Shown in pieces: positions 3,792-52,657 of a stretch of 64,000 nt of DNA. Source of the DNA: a virus (taxonomy: Duplodnaviria > Caudoviricetes); the IMG/VR virus record IMGVR_UViG_642791616_000001, positions 75,935 to 139,934 of that record; one strand, 5' to 3'. How positions within the stretch are numbered: position 1 is the first letter of the stretch; the number at the start of each line of letters is the position of its first letter. The position numbers were made by a program, and so were the translations under genes. The notes beneath the pieces were generated by a model. The model saw only the letters and a list, made by a program, of their open reading frames with translations. It searched no databases and had not been told where the DNA came from.

Positions 3792-4175
3792 TCATACCGC
3801 CCCTTTCGTCGCTCCGTACCCTTCGCCGTGTGACGCCCAGTAGTAATAAATGTCGACGATCTTATTTACCGCCATATTAATCGCAAAGTCTACAGCTTGT
3901 CGCGTAATGCCTAGCGCCGTGCCCGCCTGTGTTTGCGTTAAGTCATCGAAATAGACCAAGCGCAGGGCTTCGTATTGCTTTCCGGTCAAAGCCGCCAATT
4001 CAATAGCGCGGCTCAGGTCGATCAGAATATCACACGCAGCCATATCGCCCAAGAAACGCCGTTGTCTTAACGTTGTATACTCGGCTAGAAGTGCCTTGAC
4101 GCCGTCGGGCCCGTCGAGCTTATACTGCGCTTCATACCGTAAGTGCTGGTCGGGCTTGTTCGTAGATGCGCCCAT
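3792..4175 (-). CDS. Sigma-70 region-4 HTH protein (probable late transcription regulator)
   Basis: LTGKQYEALRLVYFDDLTQTQAGTALGITRQAV. Confidence 0.8.
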   Translation of the reverse strand: MGASTNKPDQHLRYEAQYKLDGPDGVKALLAEYTTLRQRRFLGDMAACDILIDLSRAIELAALTGKQYEALRLVYFDDLTQTQAGTALGITRQAVDFAINMAVNKIVDIYYYWASHGEGYGATKGAV

Positions 4176-4924
4176 TACGACACCTCCCCATCAATTCCGC
4201 ACAGTAAATGAAGGAATTTAGTTTCAGCGCTAACTGCGCCGAACTCCGTTGGGTTTATTACATGGGCGGGGATCTCTGTCGATTCGATGAGATCGTCATA
4301 GGGGATTAAGTCATCATCCCAAGTCACGTCTAACTCTTCCGCAGTGAAGTCGGTATATGGAAGTACGTTCAGTGCTGAGAAATGCATAAAGTCGTCATGG
4401 TCGTTTTGAATAAAAAACGCACCTTTACTTTTCCTAGTCAGGACGTCGCAATGCACGACAACGGCATTCATTCCTCGGAATAATAGATTAAACAACAGGA
4501 AAGGTATTGCGCGATCGCTCATCTCTTCGCAGTGATAGAAATACCACGAAGGCTTGTAATCAAACGGTGAGTGATTAATGCGATCAGATTGCCATTTTGC
4601 GATTGTAAGTCCGCCTGTACCCGCACACCCATCGTAGCTAGTAGTCGACTCAAGTCCGCCGTCAGTAACTCTCGCTAACAGGTCCGCCACACTACGCGGA
4701 GTAAAATCTTGTTTCTTGGTTTTTCTGTCCGCATGCTCATCCTGAAAGTATTCGTGAAACACATCCTTCTCAGTGAAATTAAGTTCCGGGTCCGCTACGA
4801 ATTGTCGGAACACCTCCTCACGACGCTCTCGATCAAACAAAATCTCCATAAGCCTTGACGGAGCTTTATACGAGTCATCTATACCAAATATACGATTAAT
4901 TTTCTCCGTTACTGATTCGCCCAA
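4175..4924 (-). CDS. N6-adenine methyltransferase-like protein (type I HsdM-like SAM-binding part)
   Basis: QDFTPRSVA and YDGCAGTGGLT motifs; no clear NPPY/F motif IV. Confidence 0.7.
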   Translation of the reverse strand: MGESVTEKINRIFGIDDSYKAPSRLMEILFDRERREEVFRQFVADPELNFTEKDVFHEYFQDEHADRKTKKQDFTPRSVADLLARVTDGGLESTTSYDGCAGTGGLTIAKWQSDRINHSPFDYKPSWYFYHCEEMSDRAIPFLLFNLLFRGMNAVVVHCDVLTRKSKGAFFIQNDHDDFMHFSALNVLPYTDFTAEELDVTWDDDLIPYDDLIESTEIPAHVINPTEFGAVSAETKFLHLLCGIDGEVS

Positions 4925-4942
4925 TCATACCGCCTCCTTCGT

Positions 4943-5376: not shown

Positions 5377-5915
5377 TCGGCCATAATTTCGTCCAATCGC
5401 GCATATAAATCGTCAAGCATGCCGTCATTTACGATCTCATAATCGACTTCGAACCGGTCGAGCGCGGTTTCTGTCGGGTGGTCTAAGTCAGCCGACTTAA
5501 ATTTGTCGCCGCGCCGTTTGGCACGCTCGATACGTAGTTCATCCGGTGCAGTAATACGGAGTACCTTAAAACCTCCCGCCTTGGCTCGTTTATACTCCGC
5601 AGGCTTCCGAATGTCCGTGATCAATATGCGGCTATCTCGGCAGCATCGCAGTTTCTCGTGGTCTTTGATACGGCGGAACAGATAATCGACCCATACGTCT
5701 TTTGCGCCAGGTACGTCTAATTCGGTGATTCCGTTAATGAAATCACGCATAGGCTGGCGCTGTTTGGCGTCGCCGCGTAGTTCCGGAAATAACTCGTAAA
5801 ATAGCGCCTTACCTTTTGCGGAAAATGTGAACGGAAAGAATTCGTACATGGCTACGAGATAATCGACGGCTACGTCTTTACCGGCGCCTAGCTTACCCGT
5901 GATTGCGAGTTTCAT
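5355..5915 (-). CDS. Deoxynucleoside monophosphate kinase
   Basis: GKLGAGKD P-loop, ITDIR, HPTE...IVNDG motifs. Confidence 0.85.
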   Translation of the reverse strand: MKLAITGKLGAGKDVAVDYLVAMYEFFPFTFSAKGKALFYELFPELRGDAKQRQPMRDFINGITELDVPGAKDVWVDYLFRRIKDHEKLRCCRDSRILITDIRKPAEYKRAKAGGFKVLRITAPDELRIERAKRRGDKFKSADLDHPTETALDRFEVDYEIVNDGMLDDLYARLDEIMADQLKENA

Positions 5916-6769
5916 AGGCCGGCCCTCGATAGACTTACGATTATCTGCGCGAACTCATCCGCAGTAAACGACAAGGCTCTCGGATCATCAGCCGTTACCT
6001 TTGCGAGCTGTTCGCCGAGACGGACTTTATCTTCGTGGAGGGCGTTGATTTCCGCTTGCATACGTCCGATCTCCGATTCGTAATTAGATACAACCGATTT
6101 CAGTTCGCATAGTCCGTTGCGAATCTCCGGAATATACCCCGGCCCCATTTCGTTCCATCCGAGAGCTTTTTCGAATTGTTCGTTTTTCCGCTTTAATTCC
6201 GCCACCTCTGCGCCTAGATTGGCAAGTACGGTGATGACGTCGGATTCTTGCGCCTCGGCAGCGTCTTGAACCGGAGTGAGGACGAGAAGCCGGTCGCTTT
6301 CTCCGTCGAAATAATCCTCTCCGCCGCGTTCGTCTTCCAAATAACAAGAACCATTGTCATATCTGACGTCAATATCTTTCACCACGCTGATATGACCGAT
6401 CGGCATGTCGTAACTTTTAGTTACGATAATTTTTTCGCCTGCTTCCGCCTTACGATCTTCTAAACGGTAGCGCTCACCGTCAATGTGGATGATGTCGGTC
6501 GGCTCGAGTACGTGGTATTCCGTATGAAATATAGTGCCCTTATGGCTGAAGTCAGAAATGGCCTCAGCACTTCGTACGCAATCATCCGATTCCGAAAGAG
6601 CATCTACTGTAAAAATATCGCCTTCATTATACGGATCTTGACTACCGCTCTTCTCTACAATTACGATCTTCTCGCCAACCTCCGCGTTCCTATCCACCGC
6701 AACATATTCACGCTCAACACCGAGCTTTTCGTCCTTTAATACGTGTATGGTACGCTTTTCTTCCGTCAT
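5912..6769 (-). CDS. Phage protein with two R-x-A-x-(V/A)-GE beta-domains and a C-terminal coiled coil
   Basis: VDRNAEVGEKIVIV and EDRKAEAGEKIIVT repeats. Confidence 0.75.
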   Translation of the reverse strand: MTEEKRTIHVLKDEKLGVEREYVAVDRNAEVGEKIVIVEKSGSQDPYNEGDIFTVDALSESDDCVRSAEAISDFSHKGTIFHTEYHVLEPTDIIHIDGERYRLEDRKAEAGEKIIVTKSYDMPIGHISVVKDIDVRYDNGSCYLEDERGGEDYFDGESDRLLVLTPVQDAAEAQESDVITVLANLGAEVAELKRKNEQFEKALGWNEMGPGYIPEIRNGLCELKSVVSNYESEIGRMQAEINALHEDKVRLGEQLAKVTADDPRALSFTADEFAQIIVSLSRAGL

Positions 6770-6934
6770 CATTCCGCCTCCTCGTATTGCGCTACATTTA
6801 GGTAACTTTCGATATCTTCGCATTCTATCCGTATACCGTTATCGAAAACTATTAAATGATCGCTTGCTTCAACAACTTTCGCGCCAACGATCGCAGTTAA
6901 TCCGTCATAAACCACCTGAGCAACCTCCGCTATT

Positions 6935-7447
6935 TTATTTCGTTATGATTTCCGCCTCTAGCCGCTGTCGTCCGAATGCTTTCGCCTCGCCCACGCCCGC
7001 AACGTATAGATCGATATGACCTTCCGTAATTGCGCCGCCGCGATCTTCACATACCCTGACGCCGATGCCTTCGATATTCAGCCGCGTCCCGAACGCCAAT
7101 GAAGGCGGACAGGCGATCGTATGACCCGTTTTGGTACGCGCGCCGCTTGCTGTTACTCCGTAGTCGGAATGGCCGGCTGACTTGCCCGTAGACTCGGCGC
7201 CGTTTGTATACGCAGTCACTTCGTATGTTTGCGCTAGTTTTGGCGGCGCCTTCTTGCGATTGACTACGTTTGGCGACGGTTTCTTAGCCGCCGCCTTCTT
7301 CAGCGCCTTTAATTCGCCCTCTAACGTCTTGATGCGCTGATTGGCTCGTTGTAAGGCCGCTTGATCATCCGTTAATATAGGCGCAGGCTTTTCCGTCGCT
7401 GGTTGCTGCGTACAAAGTAACCCGCACGCAAGCGTCATGGTCGACAT
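6935..7447 (-). CDS. 3D-domain exported cell-wall protein (start uncertain)
   Basis: YEVTAYT...GVTASG...CEDRGGAITEGHIDLY. Confidence 0.85.
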   Translation of the reverse strand: MSTMTLACGLLCTQQPATEKPAPILTDDQAALQRANQRIKTLEGELKALKKAAAKKPSPNVVNRKKAPPKLAQTYEVTAYTNGAESTGKSAGHSDYGVTASGARTKTGHTIACPPSLAFGTRLNIEGIGVRVCEDRGGAITEGHIDLYVAGVGEAKAFGRQRLEAEIITK

Positions 7448-8235
7448 TATACCGATGCAGACACCCCCTCGAAGAATTGCGCAGTCCACGGTTCGACTTC
7501 GACTACTTCTCGGCGAAGCGCTTCGGCTAGGTCGGCGATTTCCGCCTGTGCGCCGTTGCCCTTCCGTCTCTTAGCGTAGAAGTCTAGTAAAGCGCGTAGG
7601 TTAACGGTCAATACGAGATTAGTAGCGGCGGCTTGCGGTAGGACGGCGCGTGCATCTTCTGCCGGTACGCCTGCTTTACGCAAAAGATCGTAGCTCTCCT
7701 GAGCGTATTTCATTGCGTCATCAAAAACATCTTCCGCAGTTAAGTCGTAATCAGCACACTCTACTGCGGTCTTATCGCCCATAACCTTTTCCGGAACGAC
7801 GTAATCGAAACCACCTGACCTATCACCGCTACCCATCCGCACATAACGTTGTGATTGGACGCTGAAGCTAAAGCCGACGCGGTGTCGTGTTAATTGCGCT
7901 AATAGGGCGCGGCTTACGCCTTCGATCGCAAAGGTGAACGTAATTCCTTCTAAAGTAGACGTATGTTTCGACGCAACAATCTGCCGAATAAGTCTATCCG
8001 CGTCAGAACCGGAAGTTCCATCCGATGCAGCCGACCCAAAATATTTAGCGCCTTCTTTAATCGCGATTTCAGACGGTTTGTTTGCGCTATAGCAAGTACG
8101 GATGGCTGTTAAAGCGAGGATCTTTCCGTCCGTCATATCCGTTAGTTGGTCGGAGGCCTTTTGTAATTTCGCTTTAAATTTATCGCTTAATTGCGTATGA
8201 AACATTAATTCAACTGACATTTTTGTTTCTGCCAA
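7447..8235 (-). CDS. thyX: Flavin-dependent thymidylate synthase
   Basis: HTSTLE and [15 protein letters not shown] motifs; TTG start after AGGAGG. Confidence 0.93.
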
Positions 8236-9868: not shown

Positions 9869-9876
9869 ACGATCAG

Positions 9877-9934
9877 CTCCTTATTTTCGCTTTCACTTAT
9901 ACAGTCGCATGTGGGCGGTGGAAATCGGGACATT
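9877..9934 (-). promoter_or_regulatory. Phage-specific promoter-like motif, copy 1
   Basis: Minus strand AATGTCCCGATT-N-CCACATGCGACTGTA-TAAG-TGAAAGCGAAAATAAGGAG; near-identical to 37544-37601. Confidence 0.75.
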
Positions 9935-27056: not shown

Positions 27057-27190
27057 AGTACGTTAGCCTCCTTAATTTTTAGGTAAAACGTACTAGACGG
27101 AGGGTTGTTCGCATGGTGTTCGCTTGAAATTCGATTCTCAATCGATTATCATTAAAATACGTAGCGAAGCCCTCGTGCCTAGATACGTGA

Positions 27191-27721
27191 TTATGCTGTT
27201 AGTTCGCGCTGGCAGTGTAAACGGAAACGTCGGATGAACTTGCGATGTGCTTCGAAATTTCCTCCTAAACGTTGCGTCAACAACGTGGAGATTTCGGTCA
27301 TATTCGTACATCCTTCGCTCCAACATCTAAGTATTAATTCTTTGCGAAGATCGCCTTGCGTCAACAGGGCGGTCTTTTCTTTTAGTAAAACTTCGCCTTC
27401 GACGTCCGTCAAAACGTCTTGAGGCTCCCACGAGACATTACCATCATCTCGCATTCCTTCTATAGATAAAGCCGCTTCTTTTCGTGAAGCCTTCAGATAC
27501 TTATTTCGTTCCCTTACGATAATGCGCTGGATCAACGCTTTCTTATCACGACCATTCCCTTCATAGCGCTCCAACCAGTAGCCTATCGAGTTTAAGCACC
27601 GCTGCTCGAACGATGTTTGGTCGGGAACTAAGTGTGCGATTCGTTGCGATTCTCTTTGTACATACGGAATCGCTCCGTAATCTGCGGCCATCTGAAGTCT
27701 ATTAAATTTTTCTTTATTCAA
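27191..27721 (-). CDS. ECF-sized sigma-70-like factor (176 aa)
   Basis: GGAGG RBS + TTG; region-2-like PYVQRESQRI..DQTSFEQ..LERY..LIQRIIVRERNKYLK and region-4-like RKELILRCWSEGCTNMTEISTLL. Confidence 0.65.
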   Translation of the reverse strand: MNKEKFNRLQMAADYGAIPYVQRESQRIAHLVPDQTSFEQRCLNSIGYWLERYEGNGRDKKALIQRIIVRERNKYLKASRKEAALSIEGMRDDGNVSWEPQDVLTDVEGEVLLKEKTALLTQGDLRKELILRCWSEGCTNMTEISTLLTQRLGGNFEAHRKFIRRFRLHCQRELTA

Positions 27722-27743
27722 GTTTTTCTCCTCCCGTCCCTTA

Positions 27744-27784
27744 CACTTATACAGTCGCATATGGTCTGTTAGAATCGGGACATT
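27744..27784 (-). promoter_or_regulatory. Phage-specific promoter-like motif, copy 2 (upstream of the sigma-like gene)
   Basis: Minus strand AATGTCCCGATT-N-CCATATGCGACTGTATAAGTG. Confidence 0.75.
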
Positions 27785-27908
27785 TGATATAAAGTTTTTT
27801 ATATTTTTTCTTCCATGTCCATATATTAGCATCTAGGGAGGAGAAGTTTGTGGTTTTTGGATAATCTTAGTTTTTTAGACTTTTCCGAAAAATATCATAA
27901 AAAAAGAC

Positions 27909-27937
27909 AAAAGAAAAAGGCCAGTTGGCCCGTTCTT
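27909..27937 (-). terminator. Terminator after aimP
   Basis: GGCC-AACT-GGCC stem followed by a U-tract on the minus strand. Confidence 0.55.
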
Positions 27938-28072
27938 TTATCCACCTACTTTTATTGCGCTTGTCTGTATTGGTGTATTTTCATCCGCTAAATCTTTTGT
28001 GGATCCTTCGGTATTAAGAAGCGAAAGAACTAATGCCCCTAAAACAAAACCCGTTAATAAAATCTTTTTCAT
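27938..28072 (-). CDS. aimP: Arbitrium pro-peptide AimP-like (44 aa)
   Basis: GGAG RBS; MKKILLTGFVLGALVLSLLNTEGSTKDLADENTPIQTSAIKVGG: signal peptide plus C-terminal short peptide, directly after an HTH-TPR receptor. Confidence 0.85.
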   Translation of the reverse strand: MKKILLTGFVLGALVLSLLNTEGSTKDLADENTPIQTSAIKVGG

Positions 28073-29180
28073 AAACAACAGCTCCCTTAGTTTTTAATTT
28101 AATCGACTTCAAAGCATTAACCTGATCGGGGTCTACTCCAACAATACGTAGGGTTTCCGCTGCGAGTGATGCGAAGAAGAAGTTCATCTCTTTGTGGAAA
28201 TGGCTAAATGCTCTATATATATCGCCCAATTCCCTCCCCTTAACGTAGTTAAAGTATACTATAAAATCCTCATCACCTCCTAGAAGTAATCTGTCTGTAA
28301 ATTTAGTTATATCCGGTAAATTTCCGCCGCTAAGGAAATCAAAAAGTGTCTTCACGAAATTTAAGTTATTCGTCGCTTCGGAAATTAAAACATCTTCTTT
28401 TGTCATTTTTGCGTAATCGACACTCTTTATTAAAAAATCAATACACGAACCCTTATCTTCATATAAGTTACACATACCTAAATAATAATAACCGTCGGAT
28501 ATATGCTTGTAGTTGAGTTCGGTTTCAACAAGCACATTTGCGTGTTCGCGACATAACTCTAAATCATTTAAATGTAAATATGCCGGAGCTAACAATTCCG
28601 ATAAACGATAAGAAAATGATTCTCTGAAAAATGCTCTTCTTTTTCCGATATTTTTTATAGAGTCATTTATCTCATTAGCTACCCTTGCCATTCCCAAAAA
28701 GTCTCCTTCATAGTATAAAGAAACGCAGATGTATATATCTCTTAACACTGCGAGATCTTTAGAACTCGATACTTTTTGTTTTTTTACATTTTGGCACAAT
28801 TCATTAAATTTAATTCTATCAGTCATGAAGTTCAACAAGAGGCTGTACATCTCGACGAATTGCTTAATTCCCGGCTCTTCTTTACTTTTTTCAAGAAGCA
28901 TCCCAAGTAACTCTGAATCTCTTTTTAATGCAGCGTACTCAAAAGCTTGTTTAATCCACTCAGGAGATTCGATTTTCATACACCATTCACGCATTGTTTC
29001 GTGGTATTGTTCTTTGTAGAAGAACTTTGAAAGTGTTACTAAGTGCTTGAAGCCAATGGACCCGCTGTCGGAAAACTCGTATAATACATCTTGGTTAATT
29101 CCGGTTTTTGTGGAAATACATGCTATACTTAAGTCGTGTTTTTCTCTGAGGTTGATAAAATCATCTTTAATTGACCGCAT
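28014..29180 (-). CDS. aimR: Arbitrium receptor AimR-like (HTH + TPR, 388 aa)
   Basis: N-terminal HTH, then MREWC..IKQAFEYA, LHLNDLELCREHA and TPR helices paralleling SPbeta/phi3T AimR; followed by a secreted-peptide gene. Confidence 0.85.
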   Translation of the reverse strand: MRSIKDDFINLREKHDLSIACISTKTGINQDVLYEFSDSGSIGFKHLVTLSKFFYKEQYHETMREWCMKIESPEWIKQAFEYAALKRDSELLGMLLEKSKEEPGIKQFVEMYSLLLNFMTDRIKFNELCQNVKKQKVSSSKDLAVLRDIYICVSLYYEGDFLGMARVANEINDSIKNIGKRRAFFRESFSYRLSELLAPAYLHLNDLELCREHANVLVETELNYKHISDGYYYLGMCNLYEDKGSCIDFLIKSVDYAKMTKEDVLISEATNNLNFVKTLFDFLSGGNLPDITKFTDRLLLGGDEDFIVYFNYVKGRELGDIYRAFSHFHKEMNFFFASLAAETLRIVGVDPDQVNALKSIKLKTKGAVVYEKDFINGFCFRGISSFAS

Positions 29181-29281
29181 AATACACACCCCTTATAGAC
29201 TTACGCCTTCTCTCTGTTTATACTATAACATAAATGCACACTTTTGTGTGCGGTAATTTAAGGAAAAAAGGAGATTTTTTT

Positions 29282-29488
29282 ATGATTAGCTACGAACCGC
29301 TTAGGACTTACTTGGATGAAAGAGGGTTAACAACCGGAATTTTAAGAGATAAAGTAATACATCGGAACCTTGTAACGAAGATTAACGAGGACAAGCCCGT
29401 TAGCTTATCGACTATCGAAGCTATTTGCCTCGAATTGGATGTGCCTATCGAAAAGGTTGTCCGTATTCTTCCAAATCCGCCCGAATGA
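29282..29488 (+). CDS. Cro/C1-type HTH regulator
   Basis: MISYEPLR...VSLSTIEAICLELDVPIEKVV; divergent from aimR. Confidence 0.85.
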   Translation: MISYEPLRTYLDERGLTTGILRDKVIHRNLVTKINEDKPVSLSTIEAICLELDVPIEKVVRILPNPPE

Positions 29489-29554: not shown

Positions 29555-29797
29555 GTGTTTATCTCGCAGTATTCGGTCGTAGATTGCCGGATAAAGGAAC
29601 TGTGTTATAAACGTGGTTATACGCTTATCCAACTCGCAGAAATGGTCGGAATATCTAATACGCAGCTTTCCGATTATATTTCGCTCAGAAACGTCCCTAA
29701 CGTTGAAATGGCATATTCTATTGCGCGTTGCCTCGACTGCCCGGTCGAAGCATTATATAATTGGCGTCCTTTATCCGGTAGCAACACGGAGGGTTAA
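29555..29797 (+). CDS. Xre-family HTH regulator
   Basis: YTLIQLAEMVGISNTQLSDY...PNVEMAYSIARCL. Confidence 0.82.
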   Translation: MFISQYSVVDCRIKELCYKRGYTLIQLAEMVGISNTQLSDYISLRNVPNVEMAYSIARCLDCPVEALYNWRPLSGSNTEG

Positions 29798-30795
29798 GAC
29801 AACCTCCGCCGACCGAAAGTTCGGATATTCCCGAACCTCACGTTAATACTTACCGCCTCCGCACGACTAACAACTCGCTTAAGAGCGCCCTCACCTTTCG
29901 CCATCAATAATTCATTCGCATCTTTGTACCCTTCCGTTATATAACCGTGCGCAAGCCTGACTTTGCCGCGCATCTTTAGCTCGACCTCCTTCCGAAGTTT
30001 TTTACCGGCTTCGTCATTGTCCGTTATTACTATTAAATATTCGATTGACGACTGCGCAATTATGTCCGCCTTCTCTGCGGAAAATTTACTGCCGCCTGTC
30101 GCAATGCCGCAATAGCCTGCCGTACGCCACGAAAGCGCATCGATTTCAGCTTCGGCAAGCACCGCTGTTTTAGCGCGATCAGCATATACGGTTTCGATTC
30201 CGTAAATAAGTTCACGAATCGGCAAGCCGCCTTTTGCGTACCAAAACGCTTTATTGCGGGTCGATCGGTACTTCACGTTTGCCAGACGCTTGTTAGGCAA
30301 CCGCCACGGAATCACGGCCGTTTTTCCGATCAAGCCTACGCCTGCTTCGCGCTGGACGTCTTCGCTTATTCCGCGGTTAGTTAAGTAAGCATTCGGGCCG
30401 ATTTTAACGTCGGTCAGTAAACTTTCGGCTAATGGCCGTCTAGGCTCAACGATTTTTAAACGCGGAATGCGGAGTTTTAGGCGTTCTTCGCCTTCGCTAG
30501 TACCATAAGTCTCGGTTAGATATAAAGCCGTCTCTTCCTCGGTTTCTTCACGCAAGAATGCGAGCAGTTTAATGAATCCGCCACGTTCGCCCGTGCCGCT
30601 GTCTCCGAAATATCCGGCCTTGGCTGTCGAGGTGTCTTCGTAATAAACATAAAAACTAGGAGTACGGTCATCGCGAAAAGGGCTTGCCGCCGTTAATCGG
30701 TCAGCGTGCCACGTAGGACGATCCCATTCAAAAAGTTCTAATTCTTCGCGTATGTCGACGTCCGTCGGGACGCCATTAATCGTAATGATCGACAT
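29794..30795 (-). CDS. DNA primase (TOPRIM)
   Basis: SPFRDDRTPSF, AEAEIDALS, TDNDEAG, KDANELL. Confidence 0.9.
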   Translation of the reverse strand: MSIITINGVPTDVDIREELELFEWDRPTWHADRLTAASPFRDDRTPSFYVYYEDTSTAKAGYFGDSGTGERGGFIKLLAFLREETEEETALYLTETYGTSEGEERLKLRIPRLKIVEPRRPLAESLLTDVKIGPNAYLTNRGISEDVQREAGVGLIGKTAVIPWRLPNKRLANVKYRSTRNKAFWYAKGGLPIRELIYGIETVYADRAKTAVLAEAEIDALSWRTAGYCGIATGGSKFSAEKADIIAQSSIEYLIVITDNDEAGKKLRKEVELKMRGKVRLAHGYITEGYKDANELLMAKGEGALKRVVSRAEAVSINVRFGNIRTFGRRRLS

Positions 30796-37535: not shown

Positions 37536-37543
37536 GCCAACAC

Positions 37544-37601
37544 CTCCTTATTTTCGCTTTCATAAGTACAGTCGCATGTGGTCGGTCAAAATCGGGACAT
37601 T
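37544..37601 (-). promoter_or_regulatory. Phage-specific promoter-like motif, copy 3 (head of the replication operon)
   Basis: Minus strand AATGTCCCGATT-N-CCACATGCGACTGTA-CTTA-TGAAAGCGAAAATAAGGAG. Confidence 0.75.
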
Positions 37602-37636: not shown

Positions 37637-37666
37637 AAAAAACCCCCGCCTATTAAGACGAGGGTT
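37637..37666 (-). terminator. Intrinsic terminator insulating the early operon
   Basis: AACCCTCGTCT/AGGCGGGGGTT stem + T6 on the minus strand. Confidence 0.65.
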
Positions 37667-38216: not shown

Positions 38217-39020
38217 TCACTTTTTCAGCAATCGTTCGATTTTGTTCTTCGTCTTCGGACCGTATATCCCATCTGCCGCTAGACCATTCATAAGCTGGAA
38301 CCGCTTGACCGCATTCGCTGTTTTTGATCCATAATAGCCATCAATCCCGTTGTTTTTTGCCCCTTTATCTGGGTAGAAATAGAGGGAGGATAAGGCTTTT
38401 TGCACAGCTATGACTTGTGGTCCTTTTGTTAAGGGCTTGGTTATTTTTAAGATGCCCGATGGCAGATTTGACGATTTCTGTTTGGTAACTGGTGCTTTGT
38501 GACTCAAGCTCTCTGTTCGAACTGGCTTTCTTGTGCTTTTGCTGCCGGTACGAGCTGTGGCTATTCCAGCTTTAAATTGATCCCACCGTCCGAGCAATTT
38601 CCTTGGACATTCTTTCCCGCTCCAATGTTTATGAGGGACTACATTTGATAAAGGAATTCCCAAATCGCCCATTAGCTTTCGAATGAGCCATTGGGCATTT
38701 TCGACTGCTTGTTCAAAGTTGCCGTCTGTATTTTCGCAAATTTCAATTCCGATTGATTTCATATTGCCATTGCCTCTGCCATCTCCTGTATGCCAGCCGT
38801 TCTCGTTTAACGGTAAATGCTGATAAATCACCTGATCGTCGACAGTGTAATGCCAGCTGACTCCGGTACTTGAACGTGCAACAAACGCAGCGTGACTCCC
38901 AGCATTTGCACCTTTTGCCGTGTTAGAGGTATTATGCACCGTAATATAGAGCGGCTTCATCGTATTTCCTGGTCTGTTGCGGTTGTGTTTTGGAATGTAG
39001 GCTTGAATGATATTGACCAT
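38217..39020 (-). CDS. N-acetylmuramoyl-L-alanine amidase endolysin (XlyA/CwlA family)
   Basis: YITVHNT, SWHYTVDD, SIGIEICEN, PHKHWSGKECP; C-terminal PG-binding domain. Confidence 0.93.
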   Translation of the reverse strand: MVNIIQAYIPKHNRNRPGNTMKPLYITVHNTSNTAKGANAGSHAAFVARSSTGVSWHYTVDDQVIYQHLPLNENGWHTGDGRGNGNMKSIGIEICENTDGNFEQAVENAQWLIRKLMGDLGIPLSNVVPHKHWSGKECPRKLLGRWDQFKAGIATARTGSKSTRKPVRTESLSHKAPVTKQKSSNLPSGILKITKPLTKGPQVIAVQKALSSLYFYPDKGAKNNGIDGYYGSKTANAVKRFQLMNGLAADGIYGPKTKNKIERLLKK

Positions 39021-52201: not shown

Positions 52202-52359
52202 GTTTAAAAACTCCCTTTGTTATGTTTTTTTGAATGCAAAAAAGCACATCCATTTTTTGAATGTGCTTTCCAATCTTTTCATGTATAATTTAAATGGTAC
52301 AATTGAACGGCTTGCTCAAGGGTGTCTGGCTCATCCCCGATAGGAAGGGGGTGATGCCA

Positions 52360-52443
52360 ATGTCAACATTTGAAGCGATTTCCCTAATGCTTTTATTCGG
52401 GATGTTTATCTTTACTTTGTTGACGTATATAGACAAAAAATAG
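52360..52443 (+). CDS. BsrE/BsrH-family type I toxin (27 aa)
   Basis: MSTFEAISLMLLFGMFIFTLLTYIDKK; RBS upstream; TATAAT at 52284. Confidence 0.85.
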   Translation: MSTFEAISLMLLFGMFIFTLLTYIDKK

Positions 52444-52657
52444 ACTCCCCTTGAGCTTTGGACGGTTGAAGGGAAAGTCTATCCTTAAAAACTATCTAAT
52501 TGATAAGCCAGCCCCTTGAGGGCCAAATTGTACATTGCCGGGATGTTGACGCATCCTGGCTTCTTTTTATTTTATGCAAAGTACTTTGCATGTAAACATA
52601 TTTCTAAAAAACTTTTTGGGGTTACACAGTAACTCTTTTGTAGCTACTCTGTAACTA
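52435..52657 (-). ncRNA. Convergent antitoxin sRNA (ends approximate)
   Basis: TGgTATAAT at 52664-52672 on the minus strand; terminator-like ATAGACT...AGTCTAT + U-tract at 52435-52482. Confidence 0.6.
52537..52570 (+). terminator. Toxin mRNA terminator
   Basis: GCCGGGATG-TTGACG-CATCCTGGC-TTCTTTTT. Confidence 0.8.

Follow-up and report, generated by a model that had tools for sequence, protein, structure and literature searches.

Introduction

The output mechanism of the arbitrium receptor AimR is known for SPbeta-like phages, in which AimX acts against MazEF-type partners, and for the AimX-AimC-AimL module of a 2025 preprint. According to the available text of PMC10769878, AimR of phi3T and SPbeta antiterminates the transcript from the aimP promoter and is not a classical activator; its box lies immediately downstream of the terminator, is subject to a distance requirement and is followed by no promoter further downstream. 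The AimR operator, as given in the accessible part of PMC6458997, consists of 6-bp repeats with a 25-bp spacer and is located downstream of aimP. In the available portion of the preprint (Kabel et al., bioRxiv 10.1101/2025.11.23.689978), the 'extended' AimX-AimC-AimL module is ascribed to ~75% of 9,300 AimR loci: aimC, which encodes a helix-turn-helix (HTH) protein, follows aimP in the opposite orientation, and the output is a 29-amino-acid (aa) antirepressor. Here, we describe an arbitrium locus in which the gene behind aimP encodes a 176-aa sigma-like protein. The locus is located in a 64,000-nucleotide (nt) stretch of viral DNA, referred to below as the window, which is the final 64 kb (positions 75,935-139,934) of the 139,934-nt provirus record IMGVR_UViG_642791616_000001 of IMG/VR.

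The locus resembles those of SPbeta and phi3T in the Pfam family of AimR, in an AimP with a C-terminal xxxxGG signal, in a terminator behind aimP, in the long-spacer inverted repeat found behind the terminator in relatives, and in an output gene of the same orientation. In contrast, the output is the 176-aa sigma-like protein instead of a small AimX acting on MazEF/YosL-type partners, and a conserved extended -10 element follows the box.

Results

The arbitrium module and the spacer behind it

The preliminary description of the window had placed an aimR-like gene at 28014-29180 and an aimP-like gene at 27938-28072, both on the minus strand. Both genes were found there, and the 388-aa product of the former was confirmed as AimR by Pfam (PF22871, E 9.4e-24, 84.5 bits with a cut-off of 26.7). 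It also matched phrog_1728 with an E value of 1.8e-63, and its nearest solved structures were the 'Arbitrium receptor' entries 7q0n and 6s7i of the PDB (E 2.3e-11). The aimP gene overlaps the 3' end of aimR and encodes a 44-aa pro-peptide with a hydrophobic, signal-peptide-like N-terminus and a C-terminus ending in AIKVGG, the predicted signal. Judged by receptor and peptide, the module is a genuine arbitrium system.

Thirty-two full-length loci of the sigma gene were compared, originating from one phage record, three genome contigs and 28 IMG/VR contigs that were not de-duplicated; a scan of genome contigs for the sigma gene gave only 4 loci. Thirteen AimR-bearing spacers between aimR and the sigma gene were aligned. 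An aimP-equivalent open reading frame (ORF) was present in all of them, ending in xIKVGG, DIRPGG, ELRPGG or VPKPGG, and five AimR/AimP types were distinguished. All 13 spacers share the same succession of aimP, a hairpin with a T run, a variable stretch and TGnTAnnAT. A conserved motif and a ribosome-binding site (RBS) come next in all of them except one, locus L016 (record G001, 4710-4937). There, AimR, an AimP ending in VPKPGG, the terminator and the extended -10 are present, but the RBS and the sigma gene come immediately after, with no motif in between; therefore, the upstream promoter region alone can serve the sigma gene.

In the window, the intrinsic terminator after aimP is located at 27908-27931 on the minus strand (hairpin 27931-27918 followed by the T run) and has a weak stem of 5 pairs. 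By eye, the hairpin and T run were seen at the same position in all 13 aligned spacers, their sequence differing by AimR type. The extended -10, TGcTAATAT, lies at 27823-27831 (minus strand). It lacks a -35 and was therefore missed by the consensus promoter scan; all 13 aligned relatives retain TGnTAnnAT. Both the terminator and the extended -10 had been named in the preliminary description and are present as described.

The spacer stretch upstream of the extended -10 varies with the AimR type. In two relatives (L031 and L026) it contains a perfect inverted repeat with 9-nt arms and a 22-nt AT-rich spacer, and in a third (L018) a repeat with 6-nt arms and a 26-nt spacer. All three repeats sit between the terminator and the extended -10, and their right arm ends 25 nt upstream of the -10 hexamer, as counted on the alignment. 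By sequence, these repeats match the AimR operator architecture given in the accessible part of PMC6458997. A candidate box was assigned in the window at 27854-27892 (minus strand) with low confidence: it is an imperfect inverted repeat with a 24-nt AT-rich spacer, found by eye and placed by analogy with the perfect repeats of the relatives. The candidate boxes begin ~15-20 nt behind the terminator.

The presence of a small AimX gene in the interval from aimP to the sigma gene was considered and rejected, as only ORFs of 4-7 codons without an RBS were seen by eye. The next gene after aimP is the sigma-like ORF.

The 176-aa sigma-like protein

The gene at 27191-27721 (minus strand) has a TTG start behind GGGAGGAG with a strong RBS and heads a 17-kb operon. 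Its product belongs to phrog_24888, which is annotated as a PHROG without function. The 94% identical gp51 of Bacillus phage vB_BauS_KLEB27-1 was labelled 'RNA polymerase sigma factor' by its depositors. We found 48 close homologues in Bacillus prophages, and the family obtained by profile search comprised 173 clusters at 50% identity. A partial match to the family (47 residues, 43% identity) was also observed on a contig of a Leptonemataceae metagenome-assembled genome (L007, 54-194), far outside Bacillota.

Two AlphaFold models were built from 27 sequences and from 77 diverse sequences, with predicted local distance difference test (pLDDT) values of 74.8 and 90.2, respectively. Both consist of helical domains at residues 1-90 and 104-176, connected by a low-confidence linker. 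In Foldseek searches against PDB, sigma-factor entries made up all 20 top rows for the first model (E 0.058-1.4) and 18 of the 20 top rows for the second (E 0.18-2.1). With VIA-align, run against 48,161 chains, residues 8-79 were superposed on region 2 of sigma70 (1sig, Z 7.5, root-mean-square deviation 2.2 A, 70 aligned residues). The Z values of the N-domain with pro-sigmaK, domain 2 of Taq sigmaA and the N-domain of SigE were 6.9-7.0. Residues 101-176 aligned with the C-domain of sigma-H (3mzy, Z 6.1), and sigma4 domains overall scored 5.7-6.3.

The profile comparisons pointed in the same direction. With the 77-sequence profile, sigma-H 3mzy was the first match in PDB (E 0.0046); SigF (0.054) and SigW (0.17) ranked below it, and designed helical repeats were interspersed. 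The alignment of the same 77 sequences gave a colinear 160-column match in hhalign with six sigma factors of extracytoplasmic function (ECF) size from a Bacillus genome, with an E value of 3e-4. Pfam Sigma70_r2 was touched below threshold by 4 of 77 family members (best 0.0014) and HTH_16 by 5 of 77, and no Pfam family was reached at or above threshold in the 77 members scanned. The NCBIfam scan of 27 members returned weak sigma models (best 0.0022) mixed with unrelated ones, e.g. NuoC. On the strength of the sequence comparisons and the models together, it is highly probable that the 176-aa protein is a two-domain sigma2+sigma4 protein.

Positions 102-170 of the 27-sequence profile, corresponding to the C-terminal domain, were matched to the Clostridium polynucleotide kinase-phosphatase (3ty9/3ty8/4drf, E ~0.001), probably through a shared helical HTH-like segment.

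The repeated motif at the operon heads

A motif of ~45 nt was detected in three copies in the window by repeat search and alignment, all on the minus strand. Copy 1 (37541-37601) is located at the prophage junction and precedes an HTH_36 gene at the start of the replication operon. Copy 2 (27724-27784, motif 27740-27784) lies directly upstream of the sigma RBS and is proposed to be a sigma-dependent autoregulatory promoter. Copy 3 (9874-9934) heads the dUTPase/ThyX nucleotide-metabolism operon, the gene content of which was assigned by homology to gp75-gp89 of KLEB27-1. Each copy contains an exact 12-mer and an exact 11-mer located 12 nt apart, with three exact matches of each. By our calculation, chance would place an exact 12-mer in 128 kb only ~0.008 times, which makes three copies far beyond chance.

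The motif at the head of these three operons had been noticed in the preliminary description; we confirmed it and found equivalent sites in related phages. Three copies per genome were located at equivalent operon heads, i.e. at the HTH-led replication operon, the sigma gene and the nucleotide-metabolism operon, in the present record (G000), in KLEB27-1 (24656, 34825 and 50053), in G002 (1049, 12534 and 26457), in G005 (1136, 10743 and 25964) and in Sporosarcina phage Lietuvens (29448, 38520 and 46277). At least two copies each were detected in G003 and G004. Upstream of the sigma gene itself, the motif is present in 31 of the 32 loci, with L016 as the exception, and in Lietuvens.

The motif is asymmetric, always aligned with transcription and located at a short distance from the RBS. 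All copies have in common a TGTCnC block and, close to the RBS, an A/T-rich block. A stretch of 10-12 nt between these blocks is constant within a genome and differs between lineages, but always contains CG 18-20 nt after TGTCnC; in the lineage of the window this block is CGAC. The TGTCnC block lies ~24-25 nt upstream of the TATAAG block. TACTTA takes the place of TATAAG in one of three window copies and in two of three KLEB27-1 copies. The A/T-rich ATAAGT (27744-27751 and 9894-9901) is replaced by its reverse complement ACTTAT in copy 1 (37560-37566) and in two of the three KLEB27-1 copies.

In Lietuvens, only 1 nt separates a TATAAT-like block from AGGAGG. An mRNA initiated 7 nt past this block would lack the Shine-Dalgarno sequence, which argues against a sigmaA -10 at this block and favours a -10 further upstream, in the lineage-specific CG block, by analogy with ECF-type promoters. 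It is on balance probable, as judged by these sequence patterns, that the motif is the promoter of the sigma-like protein. In front of the sigma gene, a sigmaA-type promoter is always found upstream of the motif. It is plausible from this arrangement that a priming promoter and the gene's own promoter stand in tandem, which would allow positive feedback.

Folding of the motif as an RNA structure was considered and rejected, since GTCCC and GGGAC can pair in copy 2 while the partner is absent from copies 1 and 3.

Three modules upstream of one sigma-like gene

The synteny comparison showed that the order aimR-aimP-terminator-promoter-motif-sigma, first described for the window, recurs in related loci. 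In 20 of the 32 loci, the sigma gene is immediately preceded by an AimR gene, which ends 226-318 nt before it; all five of these upstream proteins that were tested passed Pfam AimR. The module occupies precisely the interval from the XRE genes to the sigma gene, at constant spacing, in each of these 20 loci. The identity to the window protein ranged from 25% to 90% for AimR and from 54 to 97% for the sigma-like protein. Going by these sequences, the variation of AimR next to a stable sigma is the expected rapid turnover of arbitrium specificities.

The remaining 12 loci carry a divergent ImmR-like HTH repressor and an ImmA/IrrE-type (M78) peptidase instead of AimR. In these, a palindrome-flanked consensus sigmaA promoter (-35 TTGACA, 17-nt spacer) is directed at the sigma gene from a distance of ~230 nt. 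At L027 (9740-9940), and similarly at L023 and L025, a rightward consensus sigmaA promoter, equipped with palindromic operators, is opposed by a leftward consensus promoter ~160 nt away, with a conserved hairpin and T run between the facing promoters. By its layout, the pair of facing promoters in the ImmR/ImmA lineages is a face-to-face promoter switch before the sigma gene. A further arrangement was found in Lietuvens, which has no arbitrium. Its sigma-like protein is 34% identical to that of the window, and the gene is preceded by two divergent small genes, one of them HTH, and a good sigmaA promoter.

As far as gene order can tell, three decision modules converge on one sigma gene, and this is the strongest argument that sigma expression is the decision. 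The preliminary description had placed an alternative sigma factor in the effector slot of the arbitrium module. This is supported in so far as a sigma-like two-domain protein is encoded behind aimP, on evidence that was concordant but sub-threshold in every test.

Candidate repressors, antisense RNA and second sigma-like protein

Two small HTH genes on the plus strand are divergent from aimR. The gene at 29555-29797 encodes an 80-aa XRE-family protein (Pfam HTH_3, E 6.2e-11), a candidate prophage repressor that falls in the PHROG repressor/regulator families. The gene at 29234-29488 (Pfam HTH_26, E 1.1e-4) is the counterpart of KLEB27-1 gp49, a 'transcriptional regulator'. The putative aimR promoter, predicted at 29222-29251 (minus strand), consists of a 16-nt palindrome followed by an extended -10; the palindrome, flagged as a hairpin at 29251-29236, overlaps this promoter.

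The consensus scan revealed an antisense RNA gene at 27124-27392 on the plus strand, opposite the 3' half of the sigma gene. It has a sigmaA-type promoter (27124-27152) with a predicted start at ~27159 and a terminator of 13 pairs (27346-27377) inside the sigma coding region. The promoter, 5' hairpin and terminator are kept in 13 of 13 aligned lineages, including lineages in which the sigma-like protein is only 54% identical. The 234-nt RNA had a fold z-score of -5.74 and showed compensatory changes in 13 of 63 consensus pairs, and many of its pairs are G-U, which would be mismatches on the sense strand. No Rfam family was matched by the antisense RNA. At Rfam gathering thresholds, no known RNA was found in the arbitrium-sigma module, and the sole match in the window was BsrG (see below).

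A second protein with sigma region 4, of 127 aa, is encoded at 3792-4175 (minus strand; Pfam Sigma70_r4, E 2.1e-6; phrog_3512 'sigma factor', E 1.2e-22). Its gene closes the third motif-headed operon and, by sequence family and position, the protein is probably the late-gene activator. A late 'sigma factor' is also present in Lietuvens (ORF89).

Four RNA runs were compared, which yielded assembled contigs from relatives only; these give no proof of strand, ends or level, and the run shares are uninformative on habitat. No matches to the window were found in runs X14 (raw reads) and X9, and no start sites were obtained. In run X4, a 42-nt contig at 27166-27207, within the antisense RNA, had a depth of ~23,000. 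The depth over 29619-29812, at the XRE gene, was 5,400-7,700, compared with ~39 over the sigma gene, 10-33 on the flanks and ~33 on the adjoining primase gene. Contig depths of up to 11,000 were noted on the XRE gene. The X4 contig that covers the sigma gene terminates at 27807, shortly after the extended -10, and does not reach aimP, which is a weak indication. These depths hint that the antisense RNA and the XRE gene transcript are abundant in the lysogen and the sigma mRNA is not. The product of 29555-29797 may be the maintenance repressor of the prophage. The earlier notion of positive feedback rather than anti-repression agrees with the plausible tandem promoters, which would allow feedback, but it proved too simple, as the two XRE genes and the antisense RNA had been missed.

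Genome context

The phage that carries the locus is a temperate Bacillus prophage closely related to KLEB27-1, a 65-kb siphophage unrelated to SPbeta. By BLAST, positions 1-37,534 of the window are colinear with 62,301-24,785 of KLEB27-1 (OM654379.1). The structural genes and integrase of a KLEB27-1-like phage are encoded upstream of the window in the same record; therefore, from the colinearity and the position of these genes, the phage ends near window position 37,650. The arbitrium-carrying prophage thus stops right upstream of motif copy 1. Past ~37.7 kb lies a separate PBSX-like element with an endolysin gene (38217-39020) and tail and head genes. A BsrG small RNA/type I toxin locus was observed in this element at 52298-52559 (Rfam RF01412, 157 bits).

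Discussion

The sequence features described above, their conservation and their synteny were observed; from them we infer each functional step of the following model. The 176-aa gene would encode a divergent ECF-like sigma factor, the master lytic switch of this phage family. Its first transcription would be carried out by host RNA polymerase with sigmaA, from the region that follows aimP. This step would be permitted by peptide-free AimR, either through activation at the extended -10 or through antitermination of the aimP transcript, but not by AIKVGG-bound AimR. The sigma factor would then read the motif, i.e. the -35-like TGTCnC and the lineage-specific CGnn block 18-20 nt downstream. Before its own gene the motif would provide positive feedback, and before the replication and nucleotide-metabolism operons it would bring about their transcription. 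The second protein with sigma region 4, encoded at the end of the third operon, would subsequently turn on the late genes. In the lysogen, the divergent XRE repressors and the cis-antisense RNA, which covers the 3' half of the sigma transcript, would hold the switch off. That AimR gates the sigma gene we consider likely from the gene arrangement, and the model in its entirety is slightly favoured. A wider proposal is advanced tentatively, at somewhat less than an even chance. According to it, an autoregulated sigma factor gated by a secreted peptide alone licenses replication, with interchangeable sensors (arbitrium, ImmR/ImmA, plain XRE) and an antisense lock, so that lysogeny would be maintained largely by the absence of sigma and not by operator-by-operator repression.

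Several results weigh against the model, and they are considered here together with the alternatives. The first concerns the mode of AimR action. The preliminary description had assumed from phi3T/SPbeta that peptide-free AimR activates the locus downstream of aimP. This was not borne out, as in the available text of PMC10769878 AimR was demonstrated to be an antiterminator in both phages, with no promoter behind its box. Moreover, a perfect AimR-type inverted repeat was not found in the aimP-sigma spacer of the window, which contains only pairs of A/T tracts. The same wiring could accordingly operate with AimR allowing transcripts from the aimP (or aimR) promoter to run past the terminator into the sigma gene. 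In that case, the extended -10 would be a separate promoter, either independent of AimR or controlled by a repressor. Besides the precedent, the terminator behind aimP in all 13 aligned relatives and the position of the candidate boxes ~15-20 nt behind it are in favour of such a mode. However, TGnTAnnAT is conserved 25 nt behind the right arm of the box (L031, L018), a geometry in which an activator overlaps the -35 and which is unlike phi3T, and the X4 contig over the sigma gene stops at 27807 without extending toward aimP, although this is weak. Activation also fits, since a class II activator bound at the right arms of the candidate boxes would overlap the position at which the -35 is missing. 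As far as the layout of terminator, candidate box and extended -10 can tell, the window is compatible with activation and antitermination alike. Antitermination in place of activation is a serious possibility, albeit not the favoured one.

The second concerns the nature of the 176-aa protein. The window protein matched no Pfam or NCBIfam sigma family. No Foldseek match in PDB was obtained at E <= 0.001, all values being >= 0.058. The C-domain scored Z 7.0-7.4 with PqqD-type winged helices, equal to sigma4, and Z values up to 7.5 are common for helical models according to the warning of the tool. The search of PDB with the 27-sequence profile gave no sigma factor and was topped by the polynucleotide kinase-phosphatase (E 0.001), and the hhalign probability with the ECF sigma factors was just 39.7%. 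The evidence for a sigma factor is concordant, yet each test is sub-threshold and none is decisive. The preliminary assignment of region-2-like and region-4-like segments is thus upheld in so far as all fold and profile tests point to sigma2+sigma4, but not by any significant match or by Pfam or NCBIfam.

The weak fold evidence and the generic winged helix/HTH character of the C-domain would also suit a sigma-shaped DNA-binding activator, similar to the RinA/ArpU-type late activators of Gram-positive phages, which binds TGTCnC and recruits the sigmaA holoenzyme to a weak TATAAG-like -10. HTH_16 was touched by 5 of the 77 family members, and the distance of ~24-25 nt between TGTCnC and TATAAG is the place of a class II activator. 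Nevertheless, the N-domain superposes on sigma region 2, which is responsible for core binding and for melting of the -10, and the match with ECF sigma factors is full-length and colinear. The TATAAT of Lietuvens abuts the RBS and would be a poor -10, and TATAAG is replaced by TACTTA in one of three window copies and two of three KLEB27-1 copies. We regard an activator of this kind as unlikely.

The third concerns the reader of the motif. The usual spacing of ECF promoters is 16-17 nt, and the 18-20 nt between TGTCnC and CG are non-canonical. The 49% complete record that contains L016, G001, yielded no motif copy; tblastn with five window proteins from around motif copy 3 returned nothing from this record, and the repeat search revealed no shared promoter-like repeat. 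Another conserved phage protein, e.g. the HTH protein behind copy 1, could read the motif. If the HTH_36 protein or the XRE repressors did so, the sigma-like protein would have other targets, and its place behind aimP would be a matter of gene order only. An HTH protein is encoded first behind motif copy 1 both here and in Lietuvens (ORF38), the master repressor of SPbeta has repeated operators at several early promoters, and L016 has the sigma gene without the motif. In contrast, the motif is asymmetric, oriented with transcription and close to the RBS, and the repressor modules (XRE pair, ImmR/ImmA) vary by lineage while the motif core and the sigma gene stay together. Reading by another factor is as improbable as the activator, and the sigma-like protein is preferred as the reader of the motif.

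Finally, the least credible alternative is that AimR has its target elsewhere and no control over the sigma gene, whose regulation would be left to the XRE repressors and the antisense RNA alone: a perfect AimR-type repeat is missing from the window spacer, 12 of the 32 loci and Lietuvens control the sigma gene in the absence of arbitrium, and SPbeta AimR binds extra genomic sites (accessible part of PMC6458997), but the module lies exactly between the XRE genes and the sigma gene at 226-318 nt in 20 of 20 AimR loci, the stretch before the extended -10 changes with the AimR type, and perfect long-spacer repeats occur there in three relatives.

A sigma factor as the output of AimR, if true, would be a third and simpler mechanism beside the two described so far. 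One bistable positive-feedback element would convert the peptide concentration into all-or-none transcription. The same sigma factor and promoter set behind three sensor modules constitute a natural experiment, and a large family of 173 clusters would be added to the sigma repertoire of phages. A peptide-gated orthogonal sigma/promoter pair is also a possible part for synthetic biology in Bacillus. In a literature search of titles and abstracts, no link between arbitrium and a sigma factor was found. In the available text of PMC13220667 'sigma' occurs only as a reagent supplier, with no sigma factor. The word is absent from the accessible text of Kabel et al. (10.1101/2025.11.23.689978), although the supplementary AimR context database, outside that check, may list this context.

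Compared with the AimX-AimC-AimL module, as presented in the available text of the preprint, the arbitrium genes of the window are likewise located within the main lysis/lysogeny region, beside small HTH genes and with replication genes nearby. In contrast, the HTH genes of the window are found on the upstream side of aimR, and the interval from aimP to the sigma gene contains, by eye, no RBS-bearing small ORF. By these features, the locus would belong to the 'generic' or 'other' classes of Kabel et al.

The ImmR/ImmA control of ICEBs1 and phi105-type phages is paralleled in 12 of the 32 sigma loci, with their divergent repressor, M78 peptidase and operator-flanked sigmaA promoter, whereas the window has two short XRE genes and aimR-aimP instead. 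The 176-aa protein shares with the group 4 (ECF) sigma factors SigW, SigX and SigM the predicted combination of sigma2 and sigma4, the size of ~180 aa, a putative promoter of its own directly upstream and a CGnn -10-like block. In the window this block is CGAC, as for SigX. Unlike for these ECF sigma factors, there is no adjacent anti-sigma gene and no Pfam or NCBIfam match at threshold, the -35-like element is TGTCnC and the spacing is longer. In the sigma cascade of SPO1 (gp28, then gp33/34), a phage sigma factor redirects the host RNA polymerase to middle genes, and a second sigma-like protein is encoded later, as in the scheme proposed here. In contrast to SPO1-type virulent phages, the first sigma factor of the present phage family would be the output of a decision module in a temperate phage.

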